This document shows positions 77-15,719 of a stretch of DNA of 17,793 nt, piece after piece. Below the pieces are notes generated by a model. That model was not told the origin of the DNA. It searched no databases and worked only from the letters and a program-made list of their open reading frames with translations. Both the position numbers and the translations under genes were made by a program. Source of the DNA: Verrucomicrobiota bacterium (GTDB taxonomy: Bacteria; Verrucomicrobiota; Verrucomicrobiia; Limisphaerales; JADLHS01); NCBI GenBank assembly GCA_025457745.1, contig JALOTT010000121.1, positions 1 through 17,793 of the forward strand, given 5' to 3'. Position 1 is the stretch's first letter; every line of letters starts with the position of its first letter.

Positions 77-255
77 AATTGTTACCTCGTCCGTGATTGA
101 TGCGTGCCGGGCCTCGGATAACCAAGGCTTGTTTCAAACGTCGGTTCGGTGCATAAAACCGACATGCGCAAGCATAAGAGAACCCTGAGCTTATGGGAAC
201 CCGTGACTGTGAAATGCCGGCACGGTCTGCCTTCGGCTCGCACCAATCCTGTGCT

Positions 256-1353
256 ATGAAATGGTCACTCCGACTCGGCAGCATCGTCGGCATCAACGTC
301 TATATGCACTGGACGTTCCTCTTGCTCATCGGCTGGATCTTCTTCAGCCACCTCGCGCAAGGGCACAACGTCGCGATGGCCACGCGGGGCGCGGCGTTTA
401 TCATGGCCATCTTCGGCTGCGTCGTGCTTCATGAACTCGGACACGCGCTCGCGGCGCGGCGCTACGGCATCCGCACCCGCGACATCACGCTGCTGCCCAT
501 TGGCGGCGTCGCGCGGCTGGAGCGGATGCCGGAGAAACCCAAGCAGGAACTGGTCGTCGCGCTGGCCGGGCCGGCGGTGAACGTGGTCATTGCGGCGATT
601 CTCTTTGTGGTGCTCGCCGTCCTGGGCACGCTGGGGAATTTGCTCTCGCTCGAATTCGTCGGCGGCAGTTTCCTCGTCAACCTCATGAGCGTGAACGTGC
701 TGCTCGTGGTCTTCAATATGTTGCCCGCGTTTCCGATGGACGGTGGGCGGGTGTTGCGCGCGTTGCTGGCCACCCGGATGGATTACCGGCGTGCCACCGG
801 CATCGCGGCGTCGGTCGGCCAGGGCATGGCCATCCTGTTTGCGCTGGCCGGGCTGTTCGTTTTCAAGAACCCGTTCCTCCTTTTCATCGCGCTCTTTGTT
901 TTCCTCGGCGCGGCCAGCGAAGCGGAGACGGTCGGCGTGCAGCAAACACTGCGTGGCCAGTCGGTGCGCGACGCCATGCTCACGCGCTTTCGCACGCTGG
1001 CCGCCGAAGCGACGCTCGACGACGCAGTGCGTGAGTTGTTGGCGGGTTCGCAGCAGGATTTCCCGGTCATGTCCGGCGATGCGCTTGTAGGCATCCTGAT
1101 GAGGAACGATCTGGTCAAAGCCATCGCCGAAGGCGGCCGGCAAGCGCTCGTGAAAAGCGCCATGCGCCAGAACTGCGCCGTGGTTGAGGCGTCCGATCCG
1201 CTCCGCGCGGCGTTCGACAAGATTCGGCGGGGCGAGTGCTCCACGGTGCCGGTTTTGCAGGAGGGCCGGCTGGTGGGATTGCTCACGCTGGAAAACGTTG
1301 GCGAACTGGTAATGGTCAACGAGGCCAGCAGCCAGTTTGAAGGGAGGACCTGA
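256..1353 (+). CDS. Site-2 protease (peptidase M50) family zinc metalloprotease with C-terminal tandem CBS domains
   Basis: The HExxH zinc motif is present in a TM helix (VVLHELGHALAARRYG). The downstream M50 signature NMLPAFPMDGGRVLRALL is present, and the protein has multiple hydrophobic helices. The C-terminal ~130 aa resemble a CBS pair (QSVRDAMLTRF...FPVMSGDALVGILMRNDLVKA...VPVLQEGRLVGLLTLENV). Start chosen at ATG 256 (MKWSLRLGSIVGINVYMHWTFLLL, typical N-terminus of this family) rather than ATG 193. Confidence 0.85.
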   Translation: MKWSLRLGSIVGINVYMHWTFLLLIGWIFFSHLAQGHNVAMATRGAAFIMAIFGCVVLHELGHALAARRYGIRTRDITLLPIGGVARLERMPEKPKQELVVALAGPAVNVVIAAILFVVLAVLGTLGNLLSLEFVGGSFLVNLMSVNVLLVVFNMLPAFPMDGGRVLRALLATRMDYRRATGIAASVGQGMAILFALAGLFVFKNPFLLFIALFVFLGAASEAETVGVQQTLRGQSVRDAMLTRFRTLAAEATLDDAVRELLAGSQQDFPVMSGDALVGILMRNDLVKAIAEGGRQALVKSAMRQNCAVVEASDPLRAAFDKIRRGECSTVPVLQEGRLVGLLTLENVGELVMVNEASSQFEGRT

Positions 1354-1357
1354 AGGC

Positions 1358-2896
1358 ATGGCAACACAGAAAGGCATTCTTACGCGTCAGGCGCTCGGCG
1401 CGAAAACCGCCGTTGGCCGGCACGGCTTGCTAACGGCGCGCGAGCAAGAGAAACAATACCGGTTGCTGTTTCAGTTGAACCCTTGCCCGATGTGGATTTG
1501 CGATGAGAAAACCTTGGAGTTCCTCGCCGTGAATGAGGCGGCCTTGCGGCTGTATGGTTGTTCGCGCAAGAAATTCATGCGAATGACGGCCACGGACATT
1601 CGTCCGCCCGAGGATGTGCCCAAGTTTCTTCGCGCGATGGGCGGGCAGCGCAGATCGCGGGCGACGTTTGTCGGCGAGTGGCGTCACGTCAAGCGGGACG
1701 GCACGGTCTTTGACGTGGCTGTCACGATCAGCTCCATTCCTTACGCCGGACGCGCGGCCCGGCTGGTGTTGGTGGATGACATCACGGAACGCAAGCGGGC
1801 GGAGGAGCAAGTGAAGCAACTCACCGCCACGCTCGAACGCCGCGTGGCCGAACGAACCGACGAACTTCTGGATGCCAACGAGCGGCTGCGCGCCATCATG
1901 GACAACGCTTTGGTTGGGATACTCACCTTGAACGCGCATGGAGTGATCGAGTCCCTCAACCCGGCGGCCACGCTGATATTCGGCAACACGCCGGACGAAA
2001 TGCTGGGCCGCAACGTCAGCCGGTTTATGGCATCTCCGCAGCAGCTCAAGGGAGAGGAATTCCTCGCCCATTACCTCGAACCCGGTGACCAGCGCTCCAT
2101 GGGCGCGGGGCGCGAAGTCCTCGGCCGGCGAAAGGGCGGTCACGCGATCGTGATCGAGTTGACGGTGAGCGATTTCTCCCACACGGGACGCCGGGAATTC
2201 GTCGCGATGGTGCGCGACATCACGGTACGCAAGCGACTGGAGCGTGAGCTTTTGGAAATCAGCGAACGCGAGCAGCAGCGAATCGGGCGCGATTTGCACG
2301 ACGGGCTTGGCCAGCAACTGCACGGGCTTTCCTATCTGGCGGCGCTGCTGGAGAAGGGCCTCCAGGAAGAGGCTTCCTCCCGCGCCGCGGAGGCCGGCCA
2401 GTTGAACAAGTATCTGGATGAAGCCCTGGAACTGACGCGCGGCCTCGCGCATGGCTTGCAACCCGTCAAGGCCATGCCCCGGGGATTGATGATGGCACTC
2501 CGCGAACTGGCCGAACGCACGCGGGCGATGTATCGGGTGGATTGCCGCTTTGAATGTCGCGCGCCCGTGCTCATCCACCGGCACACCGCCGCCACGCACC
2601 TTTATCGCATCGCGCAGGAGGCTGTGAACAATGCCATGAAACACGCCAAACCCACGCGCGTCCGCATTAAGCTTGCGGCCACGGCGCAGCGGATCGTGCT
2701 CGGCGTCCGGGACAACGGCACTGGCATCCGTCATCGCAAAGCACCCGCGAGAGGCATGGGCCTGCACATCATGCAATACCGGGCCGATGCCATCAGAGGC
2801 ACACTGGCCGTCCAGAAACTTCCTGAACGCGGGACGGAAGTCGTATGCACCGTCAAGCGCCTCGCACTGCTCCCGCAAGAGAACCACACCCAATGA
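1358..2896 (+). CDS. Cytoplasmic sensor histidine kinase, two PAS domains + HisKA_3 dimerisation/H-box + HATPase_c (NarX/DevS-class kinase)
   Basis: H-box EREQQRIGRDLHDGLGQQL is typical of HisKA_3. The C-terminal ATPase region has the N-box AVNNAMKHA and the G-box DNGTGI. Two PAS-like segments are present (LLFQLNPCPMWICDEKTLEFLAVNEAALRLYG...; IMDNALVGILTLNAHGVIESLNPAATLIFG...). There is no TM segment. GGAGG RBS at 1342-1347 precedes ATG 1358. The stop (2894-2896) overlaps the start of the next gene (caATGAaa). Confidence 0.85.
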   Translation: MATQKGILTRQALGAKTAVGRHGLLTAREQEKQYRLLFQLNPCPMWICDEKTLEFLAVNEAALRLYGCSRKKFMRMTATDIRPPEDVPKFLRAMGGQRRSRATFVGEWRHVKRDGTVFDVAVTISSIPYAGRAARLVLVDDITERKRAEEQVKQLTATLERRVAERTDELLDANERLRAIMDNALVGILTLNAHGVIESLNPAATLIFGNTPDEMLGRNVSRFMASPQQLKGEEFLAHYLEPGDQRSMGAGREVLGRRKGGHAIVIELTVSDFSHTGRREFVAMVRDITVRKRLERELLEISEREQQRIGRDLHDGLGQQLHGLSYLAALLEKGLQEEASSRAAEAGQLNKYLDEALELTRGLAHGLQPVKAMPRGLMMALRELAERTRAMYRVDCRFECRAPVLIHRHTAATHLYRIAQEAVNNAMKHAKPTRVRIKLAATAQRIVLGVRDNGTGIRHRKAPARGMGLHIMQYRADAIRGTLAVQKLPERGTEVVCTVKRLALLPQENHTQ

Positions 2897-3591
2897 AACC
2901 GAAGACCAAATCCCCGCCGGCGCCCAAACGCAAACGCATCCTCGTCGTGGACGACCATCCGCTGATGCGCGAGGGCGTGAGTCAATGGATTCAACGCGCG
3001 CCCGAATTGGAAGTCTGCGCCCAGGCGGAGTCGGCGGCCCAGGCCGTTTCCCTGGCGGAAAAACTCAAACCCGACCTCGTGCTCACCGACATTTCGTTGA
3101 TGGGCCGCAACGGTCTTGAACTCATCAAAGACCTGGGCGCGCTTCAGCCCGGCCTGCCGGTGCTTGTGCTTTCGATGCACGAGGAATCGCTTTACGCCGG
3201 GCGGGCCCTCCGCGCCGGCGCGCGCGGTTACATCATGAAACGCGCCGGCGGCGACCGCGTGGTCGAAGCCATCCGTGAAGTGTTCCAGGGCCGCATCGCT
3301 GTCAGCCCCGAAATGGCGACGCACTTGCTGGAGGAATACTCCGGGCGAAAATCGCGCTCCGGGCGCACGGCGCTGCCGAATCTCACGGACCGGGAATTTG
3401 AAATCTTTCAATTGCTCGGCGAGGCCAAGAGCAACCGGGAGATTGCCGAACAACTTCATCTCAGCCCGAAGACGGTGGAAACACATCGCATGAACCTGGC
3501 GCGCAAGCTCAAAGTCAAGAGCGCTGTCGAGTTGCTGCGCTTCGCCCTGCAATACGTCGAGAAAGAGGCCTCGGGCGACCTGGGCGGTTGA
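2893..3591 (+). CDS. NarL/FixJ-family response regulator (REC + LuxR-type HTH)
   Basis: Receiver motifs are present: ILVVDDHP, phospho-acceptor in LVLTDISLMG, VLVLSMHEE, YIMKRAG. The C-terminal LuxR HTH is LTDREFEIFQLLGEAKSNREIAEQLHLSPKTVETHRMNLARKLKV. ATG 2893 overlaps the kinase stop in an ATGA arrangement. Confidence 0.9.
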   Translation: MKPKTKSPPAPKRKRILVVDDHPLMREGVSQWIQRAPELEVCAQAESAAQAVSLAEKLKPDLVLTDISLMGRNGLELIKDLGALQPGLPVLVLSMHEESLYAGRALRAGARGYIMKRAGGDRVVEAIREVFQGRIAVSPEMATHLLEEYSGRKSRSGRTALPNLTDREFEIFQLLGEAKSNREIAEQLHLSPKTVETHRMNLARKLKVKSAVELLRFALQYVEKEASGDLGG

Positions 3592-3663
3592 CACCACGCT
3601 GGCGTTTTCCTGGTTAATCACGCGCGCTCACTTCATCGGCTAGTTTTCAGCGGTGATTTCCTC

Positions 3664-3683
3664 CGCACGTGACTCGCACGTGC
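3664..3683 (+). promoter_or_regulatory. Tandem direct repeat CGCACGTG-N3-CGCACGTG (two CACGTG palindromes 11 bp apart); candidate transcription-factor site upstream of the pseudo-receiver gene
   Basis: Sequence cgcacgtgactcgcacgtgc is read directly from the window. It lies in the 266-bp intergenic region, about 175 bp upstream of ATG 3858. Function is purely inferred. Confidence 0.3.
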
Positions 3684-3857
3684 CCTTCAGCAATTCGCTG
3701 GTATCTCTCGGCGTTTTGCTGAACCTCAACCGGAACTTCATCCCATTGTGGGCGAAAGCGCCGACGCGTTAGAGTGCGCGTGTGTATCAAGTGCATCAAC
3801 GACGCGGCAGTGGCGACCGACGGCCAGGAACGACTTCAAAACCCGTTTGGTTTGAAG

Positions 3858-4301
3858 ATGAGCAGGACGTCAAAGCGTAACGTGGCGAACGGGCGCAATG
3901 CCGTGTTTCTCGTGGACCGGCACGCGCTCATGCGGCGTGCCGCCGCCCATTGGATCAATTCGAGTTCCGGTCTGAAGGTCTGCGGCATGGCGGGCGGCGT
4001 GGCGGGCGCATTCCGAGCAGTCAAACGATTGCGCCCGGACATTGTAGTCTCGGAAATCATGCGACCACACGACCTCGGTTTCATCCGGGAGTTGCATCGG
4101 CGGCATCCGGGTCTGCCGATTCTCGTTTTTTCCATGCAAGACGCAGCGGTGTATGCGGCCAGGGCGCGGGAAGTTGGTGCCAGCGGCTATTTGATGAAAG
4201 ACGTGGGCGGAGAACAACTTGTCCACGGCATTCGCGCCATGCTGAGTCGGCGAAAGGGTCACTCCATCCGGCCTGCCCGGACTCGGCGACCGGCTGAGTG
4301 A
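3858..4301 (+). CDS. Stand-alone, output-domain-less pseudo-receiver (paralog of the adjacent NarL-type regulator; phospho-acceptor Asp replaced by Glu)
   Basis: It aligns residue-for-residue with the receiver of the 2893-3591 protein: VFLVDRHALM vs ILVVDDHPLM; PDIVVSEIMRPHDLGF vs PDLVLTDISLMGRNGL (D->E at the phosphorylation site); ILVFSMQ vs VLVLSMH; YLMKDVG vs YIMKRAG. There is no HTH. Start is ambiguous between ATG 3774 and ATG 3858; 3858 was chosen as it sits ~17 aa before the first beta-strand. Confidence 0.7.
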   Translation: MSRTSKRNVANGRNAVFLVDRHALMRRAAAHWINSSSGLKVCGMAGGVAGAFRAVKRLRPDIVVSEIMRPHDLGFIRELHRRHPGLPILVFSMQDAAVYAARAREVGASGYLMKDVGGEQLVHGIRAMLSRRKGHSIRPARTRRPAE

Positions 4302-4416
4302 ACTCAGGCAATTGCTGAAGCGCGTTGGGCGGCAGACCGATTGTGTGGAGCACAAGTGCGGGACTAGAGTGTAAATGTCGTAACTGTGAAACAGAACCAA
4401 ATCAGCGATCAACGAT

Positions 4417-4992
4417 ATGAGTGCGACGGCAATTCGAGACGAAGAGATCGGAAATTCTTTTGAAACGACCATGAAAGCAGTGATCCTCTACGACGAATTC
4501 GATCTGGCAGCGAAGGCGAATGCGCTGCTGACGCGCGCGGCCAACCGGGCAGACCCGGCTGTGCCGTGGAGCATCAACCCCTGGCGACTGGACATGCTGA
4601 TGCTGCCGCCGACTGCCGACAATGCGCTCCAAGATACGGCAGGCGCGCACCTGATAGTGTTGGCGATCCAGCGCCAAAGGGAGTTGCCGCCCTGGCTGTT
4701 CAACTGGCTGGAAAAGTGGGCCGGGTGCCGAGAGGTTCAAGACGTCGCCTTCGCCGTGTTCGATGGTGGGAACGGGGGCATGCTGTCAATGCCTGCCGCG
4801 CCCGAGTTGTCCCGCTTTGCCGAGCGACACGGCTTGTGTTTCATCTTTGGCGACGTGCATCCGGACGAAGGCAAATCGGCCGGATCTTTGGACGACCTGC
4901 ACGCGCGTGAGGTGACGCAGACGCCGACAATGGTTCACATCCTGGAGCAGACGCCCCGCCGCTACTATCAGCATTGGGGAATCAACGAGTGA
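4417..4992 (+). CDS. Hypothetical protein (no recognisable family); alternative start at ATG 4471
   Basis: It is a 191-codon ORF in the coding strand orientation of the locus (MSATAIRDEEIGNSFETTMKAVILYDEFDLAAKANALL...). The N-terminus after M19 (MKAVILYDEF) faintly resembles a flavodoxin/CheY-like beta1 strand, but there is no confident motif. No good RBS is seen for either start. Confidence 0.5.
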   Translation: MSATAIRDEEIGNSFETTMKAVILYDEFDLAAKANALLTRAANRADPAVPWSINPWRLDMLMLPPTADNALQDTAGAHLIVLAIQRQRELPPWLFNWLEKWAGCREVQDVAFAVFDGGNGGMLSMPAAPELSRFAERHGLCFIFGDVHPDEGKSAGSLDDLHAREVTQTPTMVHILEQTPRRYYQHWGINE

Positions 4993-5048
4993 GTCGCGGC
5001 GCAGTCGTGGCGCTGATTGCGATTTGAAATTCCGATGTCCGACCAAAC

Positions 5049-5387
5049 ATGAAGACAACCGTGAACAACAATGTTATTGAAGTAAACGAAGCGAACTTTC
5101 CGCGGGAAGTGCTCGGCGCGCGGAGGCCCGTGCTGGTGCAGTTTTGGGCCAGTTGGTCTGATCCGTGCAAGGCCATGACCCCCGTGCTCGAATCCGTCGC
5201 CGAACATGAGGCCACCCCGGTCAAAGTGGCCCGGGTGAACGTGGAGCATCACGAAGGGTTGGCCGAGGAATATGGCGTGCGCGCCGTGCCCACTCTGCTT
5301 ATTTTCAACCGGGGAAATCTACAGGACCAGATCATCGGGCGCGCCACCGAACAGGAAGTGCGCGAGAAATTAGAATGCTTGAAATGA
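5049..5387 (+). CDS. Thioredoxin-fold protein with non-canonical active site WSDPC (CGPC -> SDPC; nucleophilic Cys missing)
   Basis: It aligns along its whole length with classical thioredoxin: VLVQFWASWSDPCKAMTPVLESVAEH...VKVARVNVEHHEGLAEEYGVRAVPTLLIFNRGNL, compared with E. coli [27 protein letters not shown]...[30 protein letters not shown]. The cis-Pro (VPTLL) is conserved. The first Cys of CxxC is replaced by Ser. Confidence 0.8.
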   Translation: MKTTVNNNVIEVNEANFPREVLGARRPVLVQFWASWSDPCKAMTPVLESVAEHEATPVKVARVNVEHHEGLAEEYGVRAVPTLLIFNRGNLQDQIIGRATEQEVREKLECLK

Positions 5388-5630
5388 ATTTCCGAAAGCC
5401 AAATTGCGGTGGCGATGTGCGGGTGTTGAGAATCCACGCTCCAGAGCAGGACCAAACCTCATCGCCCGTCGAGATCAAGTTTAACCGCGGGCATCCGCTT
5501 GAGAACAACGAATTGCCGGCTCGGTTGAGCCGACTGCGATGCGGGCAAGAGACCCGTAAAACGGTTGCGCCCGCACCGCGACAAACCGAACTCATCAACG
5601 CATAACCATCGAAACAGAGAAAGGACCAAC

Positions 5631-5924
5631 ATGACACCACATGAAGCAAATCAACGGCTGACCGGCGATCTTAAACTGGTCATGCGCGACGCGGAGGAGT
5701 TGCTCAAGGCCACCGCGGGCGAGGCGGGCGAAAAAGTGAAGGAAGTGCGCAGCCGGCTGACGACGGCGCTAGATTCCGCCAAGGCCACGTGCGAACACCT
5801 CCAAGACAAAACCGTCGAAGCGGCCAAGGCCACGGATCACGTCATCCGCGAGCATCCCTATGAATCCATCGGCATCGCCTTTGGCGTGGGGCTGCTAATT
5901 GGCGTGCTGGTCGGACGCCGTTAA
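5631..5924 (+). CDS. DUF883 / ElaB-YqjD-family membrane-anchored stress protein
   Basis: It has an N-terminal coiled-coil and the C-terminal signature [26 protein letters not shown] (conserved HPY...GxGxLxG tail anchor of ElaB/YqjD/YgaM). Strong RBS aaagga 7 nt before ATG 5631. Confidence 0.8.
   Translation: MTPHEANQRLTGDLKLVMRDAEELLKATAGEAGEKVKEVRSRLTTALDSAKATCEHLQDKTVEAAKATDHVIREHPYESIGIAFGVGLLIGVLVGRR
5838..5912 (+). repeat. Dispersed direct repeat, copy A (tail-anchor coding segment of DUF883 gene); copy B at 9523-9597
   Basis: atccgcgagcatccctatgaatccatcggcatcgcctttggcgtggggctgctaattggcgtgctggtcgg (copy A) versus atccgcgagcatccgtatgaatccatgggcgtcgccttcggtgttgggctgctgattggtgtgctggtcat (copy B). 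About 85% nucleotide identity over ~72 nt, read directly from the sequence. Confidence 0.8.
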
Positions 5925-5928
5925 ACCC

Positions 5929-6315
5929 ATGGACGAAAGCGAAACAATCCGTCCAGGCGTGTTGGACACCTTGCGGCGGCTTGGCACCACCGTTCTAGCC
6001 ATTTTTCAGAACCGGCTGGAGTTGCTGGTGGTCGAGTTGCAGGAGGAACGCATCCGCCTTTTCAACGCGCTCTTGCTGACGGCGGCGATCGTGGCGCTGG
6101 GTTTCTTCACGCTGGCGATGGCGGCCCTCGCGCTAGTCATCGTCGTCTGGAATCAATTCGGCGTGAAAGGGCTGTTGTTGATGAGCGCGCTGGGTTTGAT
6201 CAGCACACTGCTGTCCTATTGGCGGCTGCGCGTGCGTTTGAAGAACTGGCCGCTGTTATCCGGCACGCTGGCCGAACTCAAAAAGGACCGCGAATGTTTG
6301 GAGAGCAAGAAATGA
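5929..6315 (+). CDS. YqjE-like inner-membrane protein (holin-X / Phage_holin_3_6 superfamily, DUF1469-like)
   Basis: It shows the two-TM architecture and the motif FQNRLELLVVELQEERIRLFNALLLTAAIVALGFF...ALALVIVVW, characteristic of YqjE homologs encoded immediately downstream of elaB/yqjD-type genes. It starts 5 nt after the upstream stop. Confidence 0.7.
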   Translation: MDESETIRPGVLDTLRRLGTTVLAIFQNRLELLVVELQEERIRLFNALLLTAAIVALGFFTLAMAALALVIVVWNQFGVKGLLLMSALGLISTLLSYWRLRVRLKNWPLLSGTLAELKKDRECLESKK

Positions 6316-6614
6316 CGGCACTTCAACTGCGCAAACAAACGCTGTTGCTGGAGAGCGACCTGAACCGCCTGACGCTGCACGTCGAATGTGCGCAGTTGCG
6401 CGAAGCCACGAATTGGATGGGCCAGATCAGAGGGGCGCAAAAAAGAATTCCTTCGTGGGCGCTGGCCGTGGCGCCGCTGGCGGGTGTGGCGTTGGTGCTG
6501 GGCCTGCGCCGTTCCTCGGCCGGCGCTGGACTTTTGACAAAGGCCCTGGGAGTCGCACCCTCGCTGATCCAGATTTGGCGCATGTTTTCGGCGTCATCCA
6601 ACGAACCGAAATAA
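6312..6614 (+). CDS. YqjK-like small membrane protein (third gene of yqjD-yqjE-yqjK-type triad)
   Basis: ATG 6312 overlaps the upstream stop (aATGAcg). The ~100 aa protein has an N-terminal amphipathic region (LQLRKQTLLLESDLNRLTLHVECAQLREA) and one TM (WALAVAPLAGVALVLGL). Size and position match YqjK. The assignment rests on synteny more than on motifs. Confidence 0.55.
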   Translation: MTALQLRKQTLLLESDLNRLTLHVECAQLREATNWMGQIRGAQKRIPSWALAVAPLAGVALVLGLRRSSAGAGLLTKALGVAPSLIQIWRMFSASSNEPK

Positions 6615-6664
6615 ACCTGGCTCGAAGGGCCGCACCGCCCGCGGGCCGCAACCGAAGGATAAAC

Positions 6665-6970
6665 ATGGCAAAAACCAACCATACAAACCCCGCAAAGCTC
6701 GGAACAAAGCGTGGCCGGACTCAGACGTTCTCCATCACCGCACCCACGGCGATGAGTGTACAGTTGGTGGGCGACTTCACGCATTGGACGCAGCAGCCGA
6801 TCAACATGCAAAAGAGCGCGGACGGCGTCTGGCGCACCAGTGTCGAACTTGAACCGGGCACGCACCACTACCGTTTCCTCGTGGACGGTCAGTGGCGTGA
6901 TGATCCAGAATGTGCGTTGCACGTGCCGAATCCGTACGGCAGTCAGGACGCAGTTCGGCAAGTCGCTTAA
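6665..6970 (+). CDS. Stand-alone CBM48 / AMPK-beta-type glycogen-binding domain protein (101 aa)
   Basis: It matches the AMPK beta GBD / isoamylase N-domain consensus: VQLVGDFTHWTQQPINMQKSADGVWRTSVELEPGTHHYRFLVDGQWRDDPE (W...W...L.PG.H.YKF.VDG.W..DP). RBS aagga precedes ATG 6665. The in-frame upstream extension to 6386 overlaps the previous gene and is discounted. Confidence 0.8.
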   Translation: MAKTNHTNPAKLGTKRGRTQTFSITAPTAMSVQLVGDFTHWTQQPINMQKSADGVWRTSVELEPGTHHYRFLVDGQWRDDPECALHVPNPYGSQDAVRQVA

Positions 6971-7093
6971 CCGGTTTGGCCTCCGGTCCCTGGGCGCGAT
7001 GAGTTAGGTTGTCCGGCCTGCAAGGGCCGAGGGGATGATGCGTCCTTAGCGTTGGGCAGCCAGGTTTCGGGCGCGCCACAACCGGAAAGAAAC

Positions 7094-7438
7094 ATGAAAG
7101 AAATAAAAGCGTATATCAGGCTACTCTGTGCCAGCCAGGTTATCAAAGATCTAAAGGATGCTGGCGCCAAAGACCTGACCCTGATCCGGGTGGACGCAAT
7201 CCGCCCCGTGAATTATCAAGGGCAGGCGGTGGAAGCCGAGTCTGCTAACTATGTCACGCGCTACTCGACCGTCGCCAAACTGGAATTGGTTTGCCGGGAC
7301 GAGGAAGCGAAGCTCTTCGCCGAGATCATCCGGGCCCGCGCCCACACCGGCAAGAAGGGTGATGGAAGGGTATTCGTGAGCAACGTGGAAGAGGCAGTCA
7401 ATATTCGCACGGGAGAAACCGGCGATACGGCTCTTTGA
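7094..7438 (+). CDS. Divergent PII (GlnB/GlnK)-superfamily signal-transduction protein, stand-alone
   Basis: The N-terminus MKEIKAYIRL matches PII beta1. The B-loop HTGKKGDGRVFV and the C-terminal NIRTGETG match the PII signatures TGxxGDGKIFV / IRIRTGE. The T-loop region (RPVNYQGQAVEAESANYVTRY) is longer and unlike the canonical RGQKGxxELYRGAEY. The gene has noticeably lower GC than its neighbours. No amtB/glnA neighbour is present. Confidence 0.8.
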   Translation: MKEIKAYIRLLCASQVIKDLKDAGAKDLTLIRVDAIRPVNYQGQAVEAESANYVTRYSTVAKLELVCRDEEAKLFAEIIRARAHTGKKGDGRVFVSNVEEAVNIRTGETGDTAL

Positions 7439-7689
7439 ACGAACACAGTTACGACTTTTTTCCCATGATCAGGCCGCATCGGTCTTTACCTGATGGCTCT
7501 CAGCGTTTCCCGGAAGCGGCATCCGCCCTTGGCCGATAGCGTCACGGCCGGCGCAAAGGTAACTTGAAATCGTGCGGTTTCACCAAACCGGACGAAGCTG
7601 GTGGAAGTTGTCTTGAACGAGCGCAGCCGATGAGTGATTTACGACGCGCGTGGGAACGTGATGCTCGGCCCGAAAAACACAACCTGAAA

Positions 7690-8205
7690 ATGAAAACGAA
7701 AAAACAACCAGGAACTATGGTAAACCGCGGAGAAAGAAAACGGGGAGGTGCCAAAGCCGCAACGCTGAAACTGCGCCGGATTCTCGTGCCGCTGGACTTC
7801 TCCGGCAAATCACGCCAGGCACTCGATTTCGCCGTGCCCTTGGCGAAGCAATACGGCGGAAAAGTCTTCCTGCTTCACGTGGTCGAGCCGCCTTACGTTT
7901 ATCCCTATCACCCCGGCGAGATTGGGGTTGCGGCGGTGGACCCACGACCCATTGCCGAAGCTTCCAAGAAAAAACTCTCAGCCTTGGCCCGTGAACTCGT
8001 GCCGCCGGACGTGCTCGGCAAGACGATGGTGCGCACCGGTCGCGCGTACTTGGAAATCGTTGATGCCGCCGATGAACTGGGCGCGGACCTCATTGCGTTG
8101 AGCACGCACGGTCATACCGGTCTCAAACACGTCCTCCTTGGCAGCACCGCCGAACATGTTGTGCGGCACGCGCGCCGTCCGGTGCTCACGGTGCGCCGAC
8201 ATTGA
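7690..8205 (+). CDS. Universal stress protein (UspA family, ATP-binding UspFG type) with basic N-terminal leader
   Basis: It contains RILVPLDFSGKSRQALDFAVPLAKQYGGKVFLLHVVEP. The C-terminal ATP-binding motif is ALSTHGHTGLKHVLLGSTAEHVVRHARRPVLTV (G-x2-G-x9-G-S/T). Start at ATG 7690 (MKTKKQPG...) was chosen by analogy with the paralogs' MxxKTxxx leaders, ~28 aa before RILVP; ATG 7564/7630 are possible but less likely. Confidence 0.85.
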   Translation: MKTKKQPGTMVNRGERKRGGAKAATLKLRRILVPLDFSGKSRQALDFAVPLAKQYGGKVFLLHVVEPPYVYPYHPGEIGVAAVDPRPIAEASKKKLSALARELVPPDVLGKTMVRTGRAYLEIVDAADELGADLIALSTHGHTGLKHVLLGSTAEHVVRHARRPVLTVRRH

Positions 8206-8226
8206 CCCAAATCCCAGAGACAACTC

Positions 8227-8754
8227 ATGCGGATTAAAACGACAAAATCGCAAGTTCGGAGAAAAACCGCCCGCGTTCTGCCGCGGCAGCGAATCATTGT
8301 GCCGATTGACTTTTCAAAAAACTCGCTGCGCGCGCTGGATGTGGCCGTGTCGCTGGCCGGGCAATGCGGGGGGAAAATCAATTTACTGCACGTTGTCCAG
8401 CCGCCCGCCGCATCTACCTGGTACGCCGTCCCTGGGGGAAAACACTATCTCGGTCTGACCCTTCACAACCTCGCCGACGCCGCCCGGAAGCGGCTGACGG
8501 CGATGGCATCGGAACGCCTCCCACCGCAGTTGCAGGGACAAACTCTCGTGCGGCAGGGATCGGCTTACGAACAAATCATTTCTGCGGCGCGGCGGTTGGA
8601 TGTGACTTTGATTGTCATCAGCACGCATGGCCTTACCGGCCTCAAAAGGATGCTGATCGGCAGCACCGCTGAACGCGTTGTGCGCCACGCGCACTGCCCG
8701 GTGCTCACGGTGCCGTTGACGGAGATCCAGGAGAAAAATTATGCAAACGAATAA
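8227..8754 (+). CDS. Universal stress protein (UspA family), paralog 2
   Basis: It contains ARVLPRQRIIVPIDFSKNSLRALDVAVSLAGQCGGKINLLHVVQP and ISTHGLTGLKRMLIGSTAERVVRHAHCPVLTV. It starts 21 nt after the Usp1 stop. Confidence 0.9.
   Translation: MRIKTTKSQVRRKTARVLPRQRIIVPIDFSKNSLRALDVAVSLAGQCGGKINLLHVVQPPAASTWYAVPGGKHYLGLTLHNLADAARKRLTAMASERLPPQLQGQTLVRQGSAYEQIISAARRLDVTLIVISTHGLTGLKRMLIGSTAERVVRHAHCPVLTVPLTEIQEKNYANE
8268..8370 (+). repeat. Tandem-paralog nucleotide repeat (5' region of usp paralog 2; partner at 8781-8885 in paralog 3)
   Basis: ccgcccgcgttctgccgcggcagcgaatcattgtgccgattgacttttcaaaaaactcgctgcgcgcgctggatgtggccgtg... (paralog 2) versus ccgcccgcgttctgccttggcggcgaatcctcgtgccaactgatttttcaaaaacctcgctgcgcgcgtttgatgtggccgtg... 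(paralog 3). About 85% identity over ~105 nt. The 3' ends of paralogs 1 and 2 (~8100-8195 vs ~8620-8715) are similarly conserved. Confidence 0.75.
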
Positions 8755-9256
8755 AACCGCAAGGGGACTCCCGAACAAGCCCGCCCGCGTTCTGCCTTGG
8801 CGGCGAATCCTCGTGCCAACTGATTTTTCAAAAACCTCGCTGCGCGCGTTTGATGTGGCCGTGCCGTTGGCCCGCGACTGCGGAGCGCGACTGTGCCTCC
8901 TCTCCGTCATTGAACCCGCGGCGTATGCCACGGGTCTGGAAGGATTGGTGATCGCGGTGCCGGACACTATGCTGGTCAGGGACGCCAGGGCCGGGCTGCC
9001 CAGGCTTGCACGACGATTTGTTCCGTCGGCCATACCCGTTACTTGTTGGGTAAAGCGGGGAAAAGCGTTCGATGTCATCACCGAGGTTGCGCAGCAGAAG
9101 AACATTGACCTCATCGTGCTGGCCAGTCATGGCCGCACGGGTTTTGATCGCGTTCTGATGGGCAGCACGGCGGAACGAGTTGTGCGCCATGCCCGGTGTC
9201 CCGTCTTTGTCGTGCGGGCATCCCATCCAAATCACGGAAAACAACCAAAGGACTAA
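8741..9256 (+). CDS. Universal stress protein (UspA family), paralog 3
   Basis: It contains ARVLPWRRILVPTDFSKTSLRAFDVAVPLARDCGARLCLLSVIEP and ASHGRTGFDRVLMGSTAERVVRHARCPVFVV. It overlaps Usp2 by 14 nt. The 5' ~105 nt are ~85% identical to the corresponding part of Usp2. Confidence 0.9.
   Translation: MQTNKTARGLPNKPARVLPWRRILVPTDFSKTSLRAFDVAVPLARDCGARLCLLSVIEPAAYATGLEGLVIAVPDTMLVRDARAGLPRLARRFVPSAIPVTCWVKRGKAFDVITEVAQQKNIDLIVLASHGRTGFDRVLMGSTAERVVRHARCPVFVVRASHPNHGKQPKD
8781..8885 (+). repeat. Tandem-paralog nucleotide repeat (5' region of usp paralog 3; partner at 8268-8370)
   Basis: See 8268-8370. Confidence 0.75.
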
Positions 9257-9259
9257 ACC

Positions 9260-10261
9260 ATGGAAACCTATTTTGGAGTAATCGAGCAAGCCGGAGGCAG
9301 CCTCGCCCGCGAACGGGTGTTGGCTGACCTCAAGACGCTGATCCGTGATTCTGAAAACCTGCTCAAGGTCACGTCCGCTGACGTAAGCGACAAGGCTCAG
9401 GAAGCGCGCTCCCGCGCCACCGCCGCGCTTGAACGAGCGAAAGCCATCTACTCGGAATGGCAGGATCAGGCCGTCGCGACCGCGAAAGCCACCGCCAAAA
9501 AGACGGACATAATAATCCGCGAGCATCCGTATGAATCCATGGGCGTCGCCTTCGGTGTTGGGCTGCTGATTGGTGTGCTGGTCATACGGAGCGCCCGGAA
9601 TGGGCGGGAAGCCAAAGGGCCGGGCCTGATTCTGCTCATACCGATTGTGGACCGGATCGTGAAGGTGGACTTGCGCGTGGTCACCATTGACGTGGCCAGT
9701 CAGGAGATGATGACCCGCGACAACGTGCCGGTCACCGTGGATGCCGTGGTCTATTTTCGTGTGGTGGACCCGGAGGCCGCCATCGTCAAGATCGAGAATT
9801 TCTACAAGGCGACCTCGCTCATTGCCCAAACGACCTTGCGCAGTGTTATCGGGCAGGCGGAACTGGACGAGCTGCTTTCGCACCGCGAGAAAATCAACCA
9901 ACGTCTTCAGGAGATCATAGATCGCCAGACCGATCCGTGGGGCATCAAGGTGACCTCCGTCGAGGTCAAGGATGTGTCGTTGCCCGAAACGATGAAGCGC
10001 GCGATGGCCAAACAGGCCGAAGCCGAACGCGAACGCCGCGCGAAGATCGTCAATGCCGAAGGCGAATTTCAGGCCGCCGAGAAGATGGTGCAGGCCGCCG
10101 CGTTGATCAGCACCCAACCCATCGCTCTGCAATTGCGCTTCCTGCAAACCATGCGCGAGATTTCTGGCGAGCACAACACGACCACGTTCCTGCCGCTGCC
10201 CATTGATTTGTTCACTCCCTTTCTGAAGCGCGGCACCGATGGCAGCGCGAAAGGTGCGTAA
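9260..10261 (+). CDS. Chimeric DUF883 (ElaB/YqjD-like coiled-coil + tail anchor) :: SPFH/band-7 (stomatin-like) protein
   Basis: Residues 1-108 are paralogous to the 5631-5924 protein, including [23 protein letters not shown]. From ~aa 118 onward it is a classical prokaryotic stomatin: [94 protein letters not shown]...[53 protein letters not shown]...[13 protein letters not shown]. The usual first SPFH strand (IV.EYER.VVFRLGR) is absent and replaced by the linker [10 protein letters not shown]. Starts 3 nt after the Usp3 stop. Confidence 0.85.
9523..9597 (+). repeat. Dispersed direct repeat, copy B (inside the DUF883::SPFH chimeric gene, immediately 5' of the fusion junction)
   Basis: See copy A (5838-5912). 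The repeat ends exactly where the homology with the free-standing DUF883 gene stops and stomatin-like sequence begins. Confidence 0.8.
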
Positions 10262-10926
10262 TGTCAGCAACCAAAAGAGACGCCATGAAAACCAGGAACA
10301 CCAAACGCAAACTTGCCGAAACGGCTGTGGGAATGGCAGTGGGCGGTGCCGTGGCTGGCCCCATTGGCGCCGTGGCCGGCGCTTTCGTGGCCGGCCATGT
10401 CGAAGAAGGGCTGGAACACGTCGCGAAACTCAAGCCACCGCAGGACTGGAACAAGCTTGCCGCGGATGATCCCCTGATTCATGTCTGGCCCAAGCGCATC
10501 CTCGTCCCGCTCGACTTTTCGCCGCCGTCACGGCGGGCCTTGCGCTTTGCCCGCCACTGGGCGGATTTCTTTGCCGCCAAGGTGTACCTGCTGCATGTCG
10601 TCGAGCCGACCACTGCAGTTGGCGAGTTCGGAACGGTGCCGCTGGGCGCGGTCCAGCGCGACATTTCGGGCAAGGCCAAAGCGGCCTTGGGTGAATTGGC
10701 GCGCACGGAGTTCCCAGATTCGATCCCGATCCGCATGGTCGTCCGAAAAGGAAAAGCGTACGACCAGATCGCCGCCACCGCGCGATCCATCCGCGCTGAT
10801 CTCATCATCATCGCAACGCACGGCCGTACCGGCCTGAAGCATGTGGTGCTCGGCAGCACCGCCGAGCGCGTCGCGCGCCATGCGCCGTGTCCGGTGTTGG
10901 TGTTGCGCCGCAGCGCAACTCGCTGA
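10261..10926 (+). CDS. Universal stress protein (UspA family), paralog 4, with N-terminal glycine-zipper hydrophobic segment
   Basis: The N-terminus has a basic patch followed by AVGMAVGGAVAGPIGAVAGAFVAG (repeated GxxxG/AxxxG). It then has KRILVPLDFSPPSRRALRFARHWADFFAAKVYLLHVVEP and IATHGRTGLKHVVLGSTAERVARHAPCPVLVL. ATG 10261 overlaps the upstream TAA by 1 nt (alternative ATG 10282). Confidence 0.85.
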   Translation: MSATKRDAMKTRNTKRKLAETAVGMAVGGAVAGPIGAVAGAFVAGHVEEGLEHVAKLKPPQDWNKLAADDPLIHVWPKRILVPLDFSPPSRRALRFARHWADFFAAKVYLLHVVEPTTAVGEFGTVPLGAVQRDISGKAKAALGELARTEFPDSIPIRMVVRKGKAYDQIAATARSIRADLIIIATHGRTGLKHVVLGSTAERVARHAPCPVLVLRRSATR

Positions 10927-10953
10927 AACGCTGAGGAGCTAACCAAGACAACC

Positions 10954-11424
10954 ATGAGTCAGGAATTCCAAAGTCCCAGCAAAACCGCGACAGAAACCCC
11001 GGCACCGCGGAAAACAAGACCCCGCCTCCGGTCATGGCTGCCAGTGATCGTCCTGCTCGCTGCTTTCTGCGCGGGCTTTGTTCCGATGTGGCTCAGGTCC
11101 AGCCGGCTGACGGGGGAATTGCACCGGACACAGCAGGAACTGCGACGGACGCAACTTCAGATCACGCTGGCCTGCGCGGCTCTGGACGCCCGGCGCGGCG
11201 ATTACGAAGCCGCCCGACAAGGTGCGGCCAACTTCTTCAGCCTGGTCACAGCGGAACTCGACCGCGGAATCGGATCGGCCTTGCCATTAAACGCACGAAC
11301 AGGGCTGCAGCCGCTCCTGGCGGAGCGTGACGACTTGATCACCCTGCTGGCTCGCGGCGATCCGGCGTCTGCCGAGCGGCTCGGCAACGCTTACGCCGAG
11401 TTTCGGAAGACCCTCGGCAAGTGA
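10954..11424 (+). CDS. Hypothetical single-pass membrane protein with coiled-coil region
   Basis: It has a basic N-terminus, one TM (SWLPVIVLLAAFCAGFVPMWL) and a helical/charged remainder (TGELHRTQQELRRTQLQITLACAALDARRGDYEAARQ). No family was recognised. It is in the strand orientation of the locus with a short 27-nt gap to the upstream gene. Confidence 0.5.
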   Translation: MSQEFQSPSKTATETPAPRKTRPRLRSWLPVIVLLAAFCAGFVPMWLRSSRLTGELHRTQQELRRTQLQITLACAALDARRGDYEAARQGAANFFSLVTAELDRGIGSALPLNARTGLQPLLAERDDLITLLARGDPASAERLGNAYAEFRKTLGK

Positions 11425-11463
11425 ACATCTCATGGTCAGCCAACGGCACTTCACATCACCTAG

Positions 11464-14300: not shown

Positions 14301-14309
14301 AATCAAGTT

Positions 14310-14516
14310 ATGAAAGATCGCGTCTATAAACACATCGAACTCACCGGCACGTCCACGACCAGCATTGAGGACGCCGTGAATACGGCGCTCAAACGTGCGG
14401 GCAAAACCATCAAGAATCTGCGCTGGTTTCAAATCGTCGAAACGCGCGGCGACATTGACAAGAACCGCGTCGCCCACTGGCAGGTCACTTTGAAAGTCGG
14501 ATTCACCGTCGAATGA
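14310..14516 (+). CDS. Dodecin (small flavin-binding/storage protein)
   Basis: This 68-aa protein reads [68 protein letters not shown]. It matches the dodecin consensus (V/YK.IE..GTS......A...A...A..T...L.WFEV...RG....G.V..YQV...VGF.LE), including the flavin-stacking Trp. Confidence 0.85.
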
Positions 14517-14526
14517 AAGGAACGCC

Positions 14527-14814
14527 ATGAACCAGCCGCAACCGTCCCGCGAAACCATCGCCGAACGCGCCTATCATCTATGGGAACAGGCGGGCAAACC
14601 TTCCGGACGCGATGAAGAATTCTGGCTGCGCGCGGAGGCGGAATTGTCTGCGCCCGCGAGCGCAGTCGGTGTGCCACCCGTGATTGCACCCCCGGCCGCG
14701 CTTTTGCCAACGCCGCCGGTATTGCCGGTTCACCAGGTCCCGCCGCTTATCAAGGCCACCGTCAAATCGCCGGACCTCCGACCGCCGCCCCGCCGCCGGC
14801 CGAAACGCGCTTGA
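14527..14814 (+). CDS. DUF2934-domain protein with proline-rich C-terminal tail
   Basis: The N-terminal ETIAERAYHLWEQAGKPSGRDEEFWLRAEAEL matches the DUF2934 signature (I..RAY.LWE..G.P.G.D...W..AE.EL). The remainder is Pro-rich and low-complexity (PPVIAPPAALLPTPPVLPVHQVPP...RPPPRRRPKRA). Confidence 0.65.
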   Translation: MNQPQPSRETIAERAYHLWEQAGKPSGRDEEFWLRAEAELSAPASAVGVPPVIAPPAALLPTPPVLPVHQVPPLIKATVKSPDLRPPPRRRPKRA

Positions 14815-14862
14815 CCCTTCAACACGCCCAGGAAAAGAACGCGACACAGAAAGGAGTTTGTT

Positions 14863-15369: not shown

Positions 15370-15456
15370 TTGCATGAGCGGTTTTCCGACGTGACGAGCG
15401 AAGATAACGAACGCAAAGAACACTGCCGATCCAGCATTAGAAAACAGCCATTAGTC

Positions 15457-15672: not shown

Positions 15673-15719
15673 GAACACCGGGGCCCAACCGGCCAGCAAA
15701 AGTTTAATTGCTTTGAATT

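Follow-up and report, generated by a model that had tools for sequence, protein, structure and literature searches.

A stand-alone AMPK-β-type CBM48 protein beside a non-canonical PII protein in a verrucomicrobial stress cluster

What links a gene for a bare glycogen-binding module to the gene for a PII signalling protein that follows it? The two lie on a contig from a Verrucomicrobiota bacterium that was analysed as one stretch of 17,793 nucleotides ('the window', 17.8 kb), and the original prediction took them for a possible carbon/energy-status sensing pair. The window as a whole forms a stress cluster, in which four Usp genes are accompanied by genes for YqjD/E/K-like proteins, thioredoxin, Band 7 (SPFH), BON and dodecin proteins, an M50-CBS protease and a class I aldolase. 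The features referred to below are as follows.

1337..2896, + strand: PAS-PAS-HisKA_3 sensor kinase, a PAS domain resembling FixL and DosP (Pfam, NCBIfam)
2845..3591, + strand: NarL/LuxR-type response regulator, Response_reg and GerE domains (Pfam)
3687..3722, + strand: another tandem pair of the palindrome described for 4283..4318, 5' of a receiver-only gene at 3774
4283..4318, + strand: tandem palindromes TCGGC-N5-GCTGA and TCAGG-N5-GCTGA, 21 nt apart, 5' of the gene at 4417; putative NarL-type operator
4417..4992, + strand: conserved 191-aa protein of no named family (orthologues), first gene past the putative operator
5049..5387, + strand: thioredoxin (Pfam, 6.1e-24)
5565..6614, + strand: YqjD/ElaB-like (DUF883), YqjE-like (Holin-X) and YqjK-like small membrane proteins (Pfam), directly 5' of the CBM48 gene
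6665..6970, + strand: stand-alone AMPK-β-type CBM48 protein, 101 aa (Pfam, PDB sequence matches, AF2, Foldseek)
6971..7093, + strand: CBM48-PII spacer, 123 nt, without terminator, promoter or Rfam element
7094..7438, + strand: PII-NG-type PII signalling protein, 114 aa (PF00543, family conservation, gene context of relatives)
7564..10926, + strand: four Usp genes and one DUF883-Band 7 (SPFH) gene, 3' of the PII gene (Pfam)

The CBM48 and PII proteins

The CBM48 ORF runs from ATG 6665 to TAA 6970, and its start codon agrees with the conserved MAK... N-terminus of the homologues. Pfam matches the product to AMPK1_CBM (PF16561, 6.7e-14, 52.3 bits versus a cut-off of 26.8) and CBM_48 (PF02922, 6.3e-10, 39.7 bits versus 22.4) and returned no further domain in its 101 residues; the N-terminal tail is basic and variable, and the protein is cytoplasmic. 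The CBM of AMPK β1/2, SEX4, LSF1 and GlgB are among its sequence matches in the PDB. The core of the AF2 model (residues ∼ 18–80, pLDDT ∼ 90) superimposes on the glycogen-binding domain of AMPK β1 (1z0m) at 1.1–1.4 Å over 64–67 residues, and Foldseek matched the model, a β-sandwich, to 1z0m, 4yee and 2qlv at rmsd 1.1–1.5 Å. Across 33 homologues W41, R70, W77 and G92 do not vary; their counterparts in the alignment with AMPK β1 are W100, K126, W133 and G147 (rat numbering). Polekhina et al. in 2005 reportedly gave W100, K126 and W133 as the carbohydrate-contact residues. C83, D79 and D80 are also invariant in this small CBM48 family, H67 and H68 nearly so. The product of 6665–6970 is a stand-alone cytoplasmic AMPK-β-type CBM48 in which both sugar-stacking tryptophans are invariant, and Pfam and AF2 agree with the original prediction that it is essentially such a module alone. 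Binding of glycogen or another α-glucan is predicted from gene context at two related loci (L170 and L176, see below). The family has at least 1277 clusters, about 10 times the size of the PII family (121 clusters).

The PII gene begins 123 nt further on, as originally described (6970/7094), and runs from ATG 7094 to TGA 7438; its start agrees with the conserved N-terminus MKEIKAY of the homologues. PF00543 covers the protein at full length (7.4e-13, 49.2 bits versus a cut-off of 25, profile positions 1–102 of 102), so it does not fall outside the PII superfamily. The AF2 model (pLDDT 87.9, with lower confidence at 36–58) has GlnK and GlnB as its best Foldseek matches (probability 1.00, TM 0.70–0.91, 28–36% identity); both methods give a ferredoxin-like β-α-β-β-α-β fold with the T-loop between β2 and β3. 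The protein keeps the conserved B-loop (TGKKGDGRVFV) and C-terminus (NIRTGE). Its T-loop is two residues longer than that of GlnB and has DAIRPVNY in place of the GFGRQKG base, with V opposite K58 of GlnB in the alignment. An alignment with GlnB thus bears out the lengthened, non-canonical T-loop that had been noticed at the outset. In GlnB numbering the changes are G27 to D, K34 to D, R38 to P, K58 to V and R101 to N, and because these residues are changed, nucleotide binding is a prediction only. The residue aligned with Q39 is likewise replaced, and a Tyr at the Y51 position is not conserved across the family. Invariant among the homologues are K5, Y7, L20, G24, K62, E64, C67, G86, G89, D90 and G91, with D27 and D34 invariant or nearly so and B-loop GDGR and C-terminal R105 conserved. 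The NCBIfam GlnB/GlnK equivalogs score 46.8 bits versus a cut-off of 181 and 45.6 versus 202. Pfam found no amtB, glnA or glnD in the window, as the original prediction had it, and neither these nor nif genes occur near PII in the related loci examined. The protein encoded at 7094–7438 has a PII fold, is non-canonical and stands outside nitrogen control.

Genomic setting of the pair

Within the PII superfamily, Sant'Anna et al. (2009), cited in PMC7726332, described a clade named PII-NG ('new group'). PMC7726332 links PII-NG to czcABC, and for the example of Geobacter sulfurreducens GSU2134 it proposes the role of a metal-responsive sensor. The present PII family fits the description given there, an assignment made from gene context and that description, not from named PII-NG sequences. 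The family is found chiefly at heavy-metal RND efflux genes, not in a setting of carbon metabolism. Outside the subclade of the window protein, an RND efflux gene lies no more than 1.5 kb away for 103 of 135 distinct PII sequences, and ACR_tran lies within 200 nt for 80 of the 135; relatives at 38–56% identity lie 0–200 nt from OEP-CusB/CzcB-CzcA-type RND genes, and an RND gene also adjoins PII at L001, L168 and L169. The subclade itself (at least 63% identity) has no adjoining RND pump except at L001, and Pfam detected neither an RND pump nor a metal ATPase in the window. Few close relatives came from scanning metagenomes with the family alignment; the loci were mostly those of the RND-linked clades. 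When plasmids were searched by tblastn for PII-NG/czc records, only canonical PII was returned, at 34–38% identity.

In this verrucomicrobial subclade PII belongs to a conserved stress cluster that also encodes a PAS-HisKA_3 kinase and a NarL-type regulator, together with Usp, YqjD/E/K-like, thioredoxin and Band 7 proteins. Of 9 distinct subclade loci, 4 have a small CBM48 gene directly 5' of PII and 7 have one within 3 kb, counts that are not phylogenetically independent since all the loci come from related Verrucomicrobiota. Where the two genes are immediate neighbours, the gap is 39 nt (L182), 40 nt (L161) or 43 nt (L001), versus 123 nt in the window. At L176–L179 the order is CBM48, glycogen synthase, PII; at L163, L164 and L002 the CBM48 gene is 1.5–2.7 kb from PII, and on the P0011 contig 2.3 kb. 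No CBM48 was found near PII in subclade loci L180 and L081, and small CBM48 genes occur without PII at L170 and L172–L175. L170 reads CBM48-GlgA-GlgB-GH57. Downstream genes encode trehalose phosphatase, GH65 and isoamylase at L163, and GH15 and a trehalase N-terminal domain at L175. Because L163, L002 and L176 differ in how the genes of the cluster are ordered, part of the CBM48-PII linkage reflects shared regulon membership and not a fixed pair.

A second type of CBM48 protein extends the association. Longer ORFs with a CBM48 domain, above the AMPK1_CBM cut-off and without the His and Cys features of the small family, lie ∼ 20 nt 5' of divergent PII genes that head OEP-CusB-CzcA operons (L001/L143, L169). 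At L001 two different CBM48-PII pairs flank one efflux operon. Contig matching, in which co-residence rests on identical source and size and the matched contigs include some of 926–1945 bp, paired 4 of 34 long-CBM48 proteins with PII-family proteins in source and exact contig size. Three or four small CBM48 proteins match PII-family contigs in size, one of them differing in source; the control, small against long CBM48, gave 0 matches. The co-occurrence on which the original prediction depended is therefore seen repeatedly in relatives, and a second CBM48 family is paired with other PII-NG genes. Among ∼ 135 PII-NG sequences of other phyla, essentially none is encoded beside a CBM48 gene. No CBM48-PII fusion was seen among the matches listed in three homologue lists.

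In the window, CBM48 and PII belong to a same-strand run 3' of a conserved tandem palindrome, beside the PAS-HisKA_3/NarL-type two-component system. No intrinsic terminator is predicted between them, a result that could have gone against the original prediction, or just past them; all hits reported by the terminator scan fall inside coding regions. A sigma-70 promoter scan of 5000–9000 gave nothing, Rfam had no match in the whole window, and the fold of the spacer RNA is not significant (z-score −1.2). The motif search directly 5' of CBM48 or PII was also empty, the dyads being further upstream at 3687–3722 and 4283–4318. Six matches to the palindrome occur in the window versus 0.69 expected, and a tandem TCAGC-N5-GCTGA arrangement is found at orthologous positions in L163, L176/L177, L175 and L002. 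From this sequence pattern we regard the pair at 4283..4318 as a candidate operator of the NarL-type regulator, which resembles NarL and MctR at scores under their NCBIfam cut-offs. The gene at 4417 heads the run that contains CBM48 and PII, and orthologues of its 191-aa product head the equivalent run in L002, L163, L175 and L176. Neither this product nor the 131-aa protein encoded at 6219 matched Pfam or NCBIfam; for the third gene of the Yqj set, the L182 orthologue has a weak YqjK match.

Coupling of the two proteins and its alternatives

We tentatively favour a model in which the two proteins are coupled, an adenylate-reading PII acting with a glycogen-binding CBM48 in a stress regulon; its one support is recurrent gene adjacency. 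The genes would be co-transcribed within a stress or dormancy regulon run by the PAS-HisKA_3/NarL-type system. The PII trimer would still bind adenine nucleotides and report energy state, not 2-oxoglutarate, and the CBM48 protein would bind glycogen. The PII T-loop may then engage the CBM48 protein itself or a glycogen enzyme that it recruits, a step modelled on plant PTST and starch synthase, so that the handling of glycogen reserves would be tied to energy state under stress. Against coupling we count that it gives no reason for a glycogen-binding domain at metal-efflux operons. The sensing pair originally proposed thus keeps its recurrent neighbourhood, but has against it that the PII family is found mainly at RND efflux genes and that CBM48 often occurs without PII.

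It is a real possibility, though one we rate below coupling, that the two genes are co-regulated in one stress regulon and functionally independent, their adjacency being operon packing. CBM48 would decorate or target glycogen on its own, and the target of PII-NG would be something else, for instance a membrane transporter, in the way that AmtB is controlled by GlnK and SbtA by SbtB; an AI-2E transporter gene does lie 3' of PII at L161 and L162. Each gene is found without the other: CBM48 beside glycogen synthase and branching enzyme genes (L170), alone (L172–L174) or after an equivalent kinase and regulator (L175), and PII at L180, L081 and most PII-NG loci. The differing gene order noted above points the same way. 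Packing sits less well with direct adjacency in 4 of 9 subclade loci, with the long CBM48, distinct in sequence, being paired at RND operons, away from the stress cluster, with PII clades that are distinct as well, and with the two different pairs around one efflux operon at L001.

A bolder version of coupling, which we consider rather unlikely, makes AMPK-β-type CBM48 proteins dedicated partners of PII-NG in Verrucomicrobiota, together a kinase-free sensor of carbon reserves and energy state that gates costly membrane machines or glycogen synthase. PII would read adenylates and CBM48 would shuttle between glycogen and the PII T-loop, for which the swapping of partners on PII by PipX offers a model. 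The complex could gate RND efflux pumps, membrane proteins of the stress operon, or glycogen synthase.

It is improbable that PII is a metal-responsive PII-NG sensor and the CBM48-like sandwich a metal-homeostasis accessory, not a glycogen binder, with the copy in the stress cluster serving metal or redox stress. The family's overwhelming tie to heavy-metal RND efflux and the CBM48-type genes at efflux operons (L001, L169) speak for this, as do the invariant or nearly invariant residues Cys67, D27 and D34 of PII and C83, D79, D80, H67 and H68 of the small CBM48. Metal sensing by PII-NG is also proposed, by analogy, in PMC7726332. However, RND pumps and metal ATPases are missing from the window, the sugar-binding Trp of the CBM48 are invariant and its gene occurs in glycogen operons elsewhere, and the long type lacks the His and Cys features.

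The idea that PII is an ordinary GlnB/GlnK nitrogen regulator can claim the PF00543 match, source annotations reading 'nitrogen regulatory protein P-II' and GlnB and GlnK as closest solved structures, but is scarcely credible given the equivalog scores, the absent GFGRQKG, the unconserved Tyr51, the replaced Q39- and K58-aligned residues and the lack of nitrogen genes in the window and the related loci examined. Recent horizontal insertion of PII into the cluster is just as implausible: the lower GC noticed originally is numerically true (0.554, the second-lowest value among 25 genes, for which the mean is 0.605 and the sd 0.029), but the separate acquisition read into it does not follow, as GC3 (0.652 versus a mean of 0.707, sd 0.049) is within the spread with four genes lower, orthologous clusters keep PII at the same place at 69–86% identity, and Pfam found no mobile-element genes flanking it in the window.

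Implications and comparison with known systems

PII-NG was named in 2009 and, in the literature that we found, is a functionally empty branch of a signalling family that is among the most widespread; that literature names no partner, ligand or solved structure, and its only proposal is metal sensing by analogy. Its pairing with two AMPK-type CBM48 families supplies a concrete candidate partner and suggests that carbon-reserve status may feed PII-type signalling in Verrucomicrobiota, at stress and metal-efflux operons alike. The small CBM48 is highly conserved, as far as we found uncharacterised, and sometimes first in a glycogen synthase operon, where it may do in bacteria what PTST does in plants. 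If dedicated partnership were true, PII-NG would gain its first function and target, and bacteria would have a functional counterpart of the way AMPK joins glycogen to energy sensing. If the genes are merely co-regulated, the annotations 'nitrogen regulatory protein' and 'branching enzyme' are still corrected, and a conserved stress regulon emerges together with a candidate operator.

The PII protein resembles GlnB and GlnK in length (within two residues), fold, sequence (28–36% identity), the B-loop pattern TGxxGDG[KR][IV]F and the C-terminal RTGE; it differs from them in the missing GFGRQKG, the T-loop longer by two residues, scores under the equivalog cut-offs and the absence of amtB and glnA nearby. 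With PII-NG it shares the PF00543 fold, a non-canonical T-loop and a context without nitrogen genes. However, its subclade is not beside an RND pump (except at L001) but in a stress cluster with a two-component system and usually a small CBM48. SbtB, too, is PII-like and outside nitrogen control, and is encoded beside its transporter, as PII-NG is beside RND pumps. In contrast, the window has no sbtA, and the PII protein ends in ...GETGDTAL, with no Cys-containing C-terminal extension resembling the redox loop (R-loop) of SbtB. The carbohydrate module is a separate small protein here, whereas in bacterial GlgB the CBM48 is N-terminal.

The CBM48 protein is of the AMPK1_CBM type, its W41, R70 and W77 aligning with W100, K126 and W133 of β1. 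Unlike AMPK β and PTST, it has 101 residues, neither β C-terminal scaffold nor coiled coil, and no kinase or γ subunit in the locus. An AMPK/SNF1-like heterotrimer is not what the window encodes: Pfam found no Pkinase gene, the CBM48 protein ends at the CBM, and in place of a γ subunit with four CBS repeats there is a single CBS pair, located at the window's start and fused to an M50 peptidase as its C-terminus. That pair had been taken as an AMPK-like hint and loses this meaning as part of a protease; the AMPK logic of the original prediction is reduced to analogy. PTST (PROTEIN TARGETING TO STARCH) is a CBM48 adaptor for starch synthase (PMC4339375). Like it, the present protein is a non-catalytic CBM48 protein, with a gene directly 5' of that for glycogen synthase in L170 and L176; unlike PTST and AMPK, it is a bacterial cytoplasmic protein. 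The two-component setting can be compared with DosS/DosT-DosR (DevSR), which governs the mycobacterial dormancy regulon. The sensor domains here are PAS, not GAF, the operator sequence is different and so is the phylum, but both systems have a HisKA_3 kinase and a NarL-type regulator near multiple Usp and reserve-metabolism genes, with a tandem palindromic operator.

The CBM48 and PII proteins

Two adjacent open reading frames are considered here:

6665–6970, + strand: CBM48 gene, ATG 6665 to TAA 6970, 101 aa
7094–7438, + strand: PII gene, ATG 7094 to TGA 7438, 114 aa

Both starts match homologue N-termini (MAK... and MKEIKAY, respectively); in-frame 5′ extensions offered by the ORF finder were rejected, as homologues begin at these residues. 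The window spans all 17,793 bp of one contig from a Verrucomicrobia MAG, for which the PII protein is recorded (exact match) as 'hypothetical protein MUF81_09215'. ORF coordinates and Pfam agree with the original prediction of a 101-aa CBM48-only protein followed, after a 123-nt spacer, by a PII protein.

Pfam finds AMPK1_CBM (6.7e-14) and CBM_48 (6.3e-10) in the CBM48 protein and no other domain; by eye, the translated N-terminus carries no signal peptide. Its sequence matches in the PDB are the glycogen-binding modules of AMPK β1/β2, SNF1 Sip2, the glucan phosphatases SEX4 and LSF1, pullulanase and GlgB. W41, Y69-R70-F71, D74-G75, W77 and G92 are invariant in an alignment of 33 homologues, and W41, R70 and W77 align with W100, K126 and W133 of AMPK β1, reported in the 1Z0M work as sugar-contact residues. 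The core of the AF2 model (∼ residues 18–80, pLDDT ∼ 90) superposes on 1z0m, 4yee and 2qlv at 1.1–1.5 Å; confidence is low in the basic N-terminal tail and the final 20 residues. This small CBM48 family comprises at least 1277 clusters (E ≤ 1e-3), the best 120 of which show 66–83% identity, and its members are commonly misannotated as 'branching enzyme'.

The PII protein matches the whole Pfam P-II profile (7.4e-13, positions 1–102 of 102), confirming the superfamily originally proposed, and AF2 gives a PII fold (pLDDT 87.9) with reduced confidence in the T-loop (∼ residues 36–58). As first described, conserved loops accompany a lengthened, non-canonical T-loop: the B-loop (TGKKGDGRVFV) and C-terminal IRTGE of GlnB are kept, whereas the T-loop is longer by two residues, has DAIRPVNY at its base in place of KGFGRQKG, and GlnB G27, K34, R38, K58 and R101 are replaced by D, D, P, V and N. 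In alignment with GlnB/GlnK the protein lacks the usual 2-oxoglutarate and uridylylation features, and the NCBIfam GlnB/GlnK equivalogs score 46–47 bits where their cut-offs are 181 and 202. Because of these T-loop and residue changes and the low equivalog scores, the protein is, judged by its sequence, a PII-superfamily member other than GlnB/GlnK, for which nucleotide binding is plausible. GlnK/GlnB (28–36% identity) are the closest solved structures, and structure searches returned no nearer solved relative. AF2 also predicts a helix within the T-loop (residues 44–57, window 7223–7264, pLDDT ∼ 58–75); a structured T-loop, as modelled here, would be unusual among PII proteins.

Among 69 family members the T-loop sequence is variable, K5, Y7, L20, G24, K62, E64, C67, G86, G89, D90 and G91 are invariant, and D27, D34, R92, N103 and R105 almost so. 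GlnB has G27, K34 and V65 at the positions of Asp27, Asp34 and Cys67. Together with Glu64 and Lys62, these three might make up either a metal site or a nucleotide pocket of altered form.

The homologue search yielded 121 clusters, nearly all of 112–114 aa, and genome and metagenome scans 160 loci, none of whose matched PII sequences has the canonical GFGRQ motif. In 103 of the 135 distinct sequences outside the query's own clades, the 1.5 kb around PII include a gene for RND efflux (OEP, CusB/CzcB or ACR_tran). ACR_tran lies within 200 nt in 80 of them, its end usually 0–150 nt upstream of PII. The hosts of these loci include Ignavibacteriota, Bacteroidota, Calditrichota, Desulfobacterota and Gemmatimonadota. 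The order PII-OEP-CusB-CzcA occurs in annotated loci of Opitutaceae (L168) and in L169, and a Sedimentisphaerales locus (L166) has many metal genes. By gene context the family matches the published description of PII-NG, a 'new group' clade whose genes cluster with czcABC and of which GSU2134 is an example (PMC7726332), and it is putatively assigned there. Metal sensing by GSU2134 was proposed without biochemistry (PMC7726332).

The stress cluster and its candidate operator

All window genes from 193 to 16742 lie on the + strand. They encode, in order, an M50 peptidase with a CBS pair, a PAS-PAS-HisKA_3 kinase, a NarL/LuxR-type regulator, a receiver-only protein, a 191-aa protein, thioredoxin, DUF883 (YqjD/ElaB-like), Holin-X (YqjE-like), a YqjK-like protein, CBM48, PII, three Usp proteins, a DUF883-Band 7 (SPFH) protein, a fourth Usp, a protein with weak, sub-threshold TPR-like matches, a β-CASP nuclease, a flavoprotein disulfide reductase, dodecin, DUF2934, BON and a class I aldolase.

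1337–2896, + strand: kinase; its second PAS (∼ residues 175–308) matches the oxygen-sensing PAS models of FixL (6.9e-25) and DosP (1.6e-14), both below equivalog cut-offs
3687–3722: tandem palindrome pair upstream of the receiver-only gene
4283–4318: tandem palindrome pair upstream of the 191-aa gene
4417–4992, + strand: 191-aa protein, conserved, heading the operon and always the first gene past the candidate operator; no match in Pfam or NCBIfam
7564–8205 and 10261–10926, + strand: two of the four Usp ORFs, each with a ∼ 70-residue extension ahead of the Usp domain; either the true starts lie further 3′ than called, or an additional region is present
14310–14814, + strand: dodecin (68 aa, 4.8e-29) and DUF2934 (95 aa, 1.4e-16), the latter present too in the related cluster L161

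Overall the genes look like a cluster for stress or dormancy governed by a two-component system, similar to the DosRS/DosR-type dormancy regulon; given the second PAS domain of the kinase, oxygen or redox state may be what it responds to. It holds no nitrogen genes, RND pump or Ser/Thr kinase, so the lack of amtB/glnA/glnD context first noted for PII stands. Two side arguments of the original prediction fared less well. Separate acquisition of the PII gene is unsupported, since its GC (0.554 versus a mean of 0.605, sd 0.029) is not an outlier, its GC3 is 0.652 versus 0.707 (sd 0.049), and the gene is kept in orthologous clusters. The CBS pair forms the C-terminal module of an M50 protease, as is usual for such enzymes, and is not a free γ-like sensor.

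The window has six copies of the palindrome TCAGC-N5-GCTGA (≤ 1 mismatch) where 0.69 would be expected, a count reached in 0 of 200 shuffles. Four of the six form the two tandem pairs, with 21-nt spacing. These tandem dyads are kept in the orthologous promoters of four related clusters (L163, L176/L177, L175 and L002) and were not found in the RND-linked loci examined; they probably serve as operator for the NarL-type regulator encoded close by. From 4417 through PII the genes share one strand with intergenic gaps of ≤ 177 nt, and no intrinsic terminator is predicted between CBM48 and PII, in keeping with the original pairing, or just past them. Co-transcription of the two from about 4320 is therefore plausible.

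CBM48 genes beside PII in related loci

Nine distinct loci of the PII subclade (identity ≥ 63%) were compared. A small CBM48 gene is adjacent to PII in four and within 3 kb in seven; the neighbourhood first seen in the window thus recurs elsewhere.

Position of the small CBM48 gene relative to PII
Window: immediately 5′, 123 nt
L182/L183: immediately 5′, 39 nt; DUF883-HolinX-YqjK-CBM48-PII order as in the window
L161: immediately 5′, 40 nt
L001: immediately 5′, 43 nt; pair downstream of an RND pump
L176–L179: CBM48, glycogen synthase, PII
L163/L164 and L002: 1.5–2.7 kb, Usp genes between
P0011 contig: 2.3 kb
L180: not found in the available DNA
L081: not found in the available DNA

A second, sequence-distinct family of long CBM48 proteins (154–187 aa, above the AMPK1_CBM cut-off) is encoded ∼ 20 nt 5′ of divergent PII genes heading OEP-CusB-CzcA operons (L001/L143, L169). 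In L001 (660–10342) the long-CBM48/PII pair heads such an operon and the small-CBM48/PII pair follows it, so both ends carry a pair; its upstream part has a truncated PII remnant (660–902) and a DUF3347 gene. The L169 metal-efflux locus (7115–8345 and 15255–15545) has two tandem PII genes and both CBM48 types: an ECF sigma factor, a long CBM48-like protein (its ORF missing from the public gene call), a 113-aa divergent PII, a 114-aa PII and OEP-CusB-CzcA, with a small CBM48 just downstream of the pump.

Source and identical contig size are shared with a PII-family protein by four of 34 tabulated long-CBM48 proteins and by three or four small ones, the small match at 1082 bp coming from a different source. 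Matched contigs include 926, 1268, 1269 and 1945 bp, and the control matching small against long CBM48 gave none. From the equal sizes we infer that CBM48 and PII share a contig in these cases, which would lend the pairing indirect support.

Functional coupling or co-regulation

Domain identities, the motifs kept and lost, gene neighbourhoods and the conserved dyads are observed; building on these, that CBM48 and PII are functionally coupled is the reading we prefer, tentatively. The PAS kinase and NarL-type regulator would turn the operon on in response to stress, the signal possibly being redox or oxygen. Glycogen would be bound by the CBM48 protein, which may bring a partner to it in the way that plant PTST targets starch synthase to starch (PMC4339375). 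The PII-NG trimer would sense adenylates rather than 2-oxoglutarate and would signal through its T-loop to the CBM48 protein, an enzyme or a transporter.

Mere co-regulation of the two genes is possible, if somewhat doubtful; the varying gene order would suit it too. A dedicated pair is weakened by several observations: the small CBM48 family is ∼ 10 times the size of the PII family and often occurs without any PII; in other phyla essentially no CBM48 lies beside PII-NG genes, also when a broadened HMM is used; gene order in the stress clusters is fluid; the loci counted come from related bacteria and are not independent; and no CBM48-PII fusion was found. Small CBM48 stands alone in L172–L174, in L170 opens an operon with genes for glycogen synthase, branching enzyme and GH57, and in L175 follows the same kinase, regulator and, directly, the 191-aa gene, ahead of GH15 and trehalase genes. 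In L176–L179 (4367–6345) and L170 (7001–11911) it lies immediately 5′ of a GT5/GT4 glycogen-synthase-like gene, beyond which come PII in L176 and, in L170, branching enzyme and GH57; such a position suggests a PTST-like targeting role. A metal-centred role, to which the family's RND linkage points, is improbable in a window with no such pump.

Both domain families and the PII-NG clade are already known. Full-text literature searches retrieved nothing on a PII-NG subclade relocated into a stress operon, or on recurrent PII-NG pairing with two AMPK-type CBM48 families. The pairing makes the CBM48 proteins the first specific candidates for a partner of PII-NG. The PII-like protein SbtB, which regulates its neighbouring transporter and in addition binds GlgB, the glycogen branching enzyme (PMC10117731), provides a precedent for such a protein acting on both a glycogen enzyme and an adjacent transporter.
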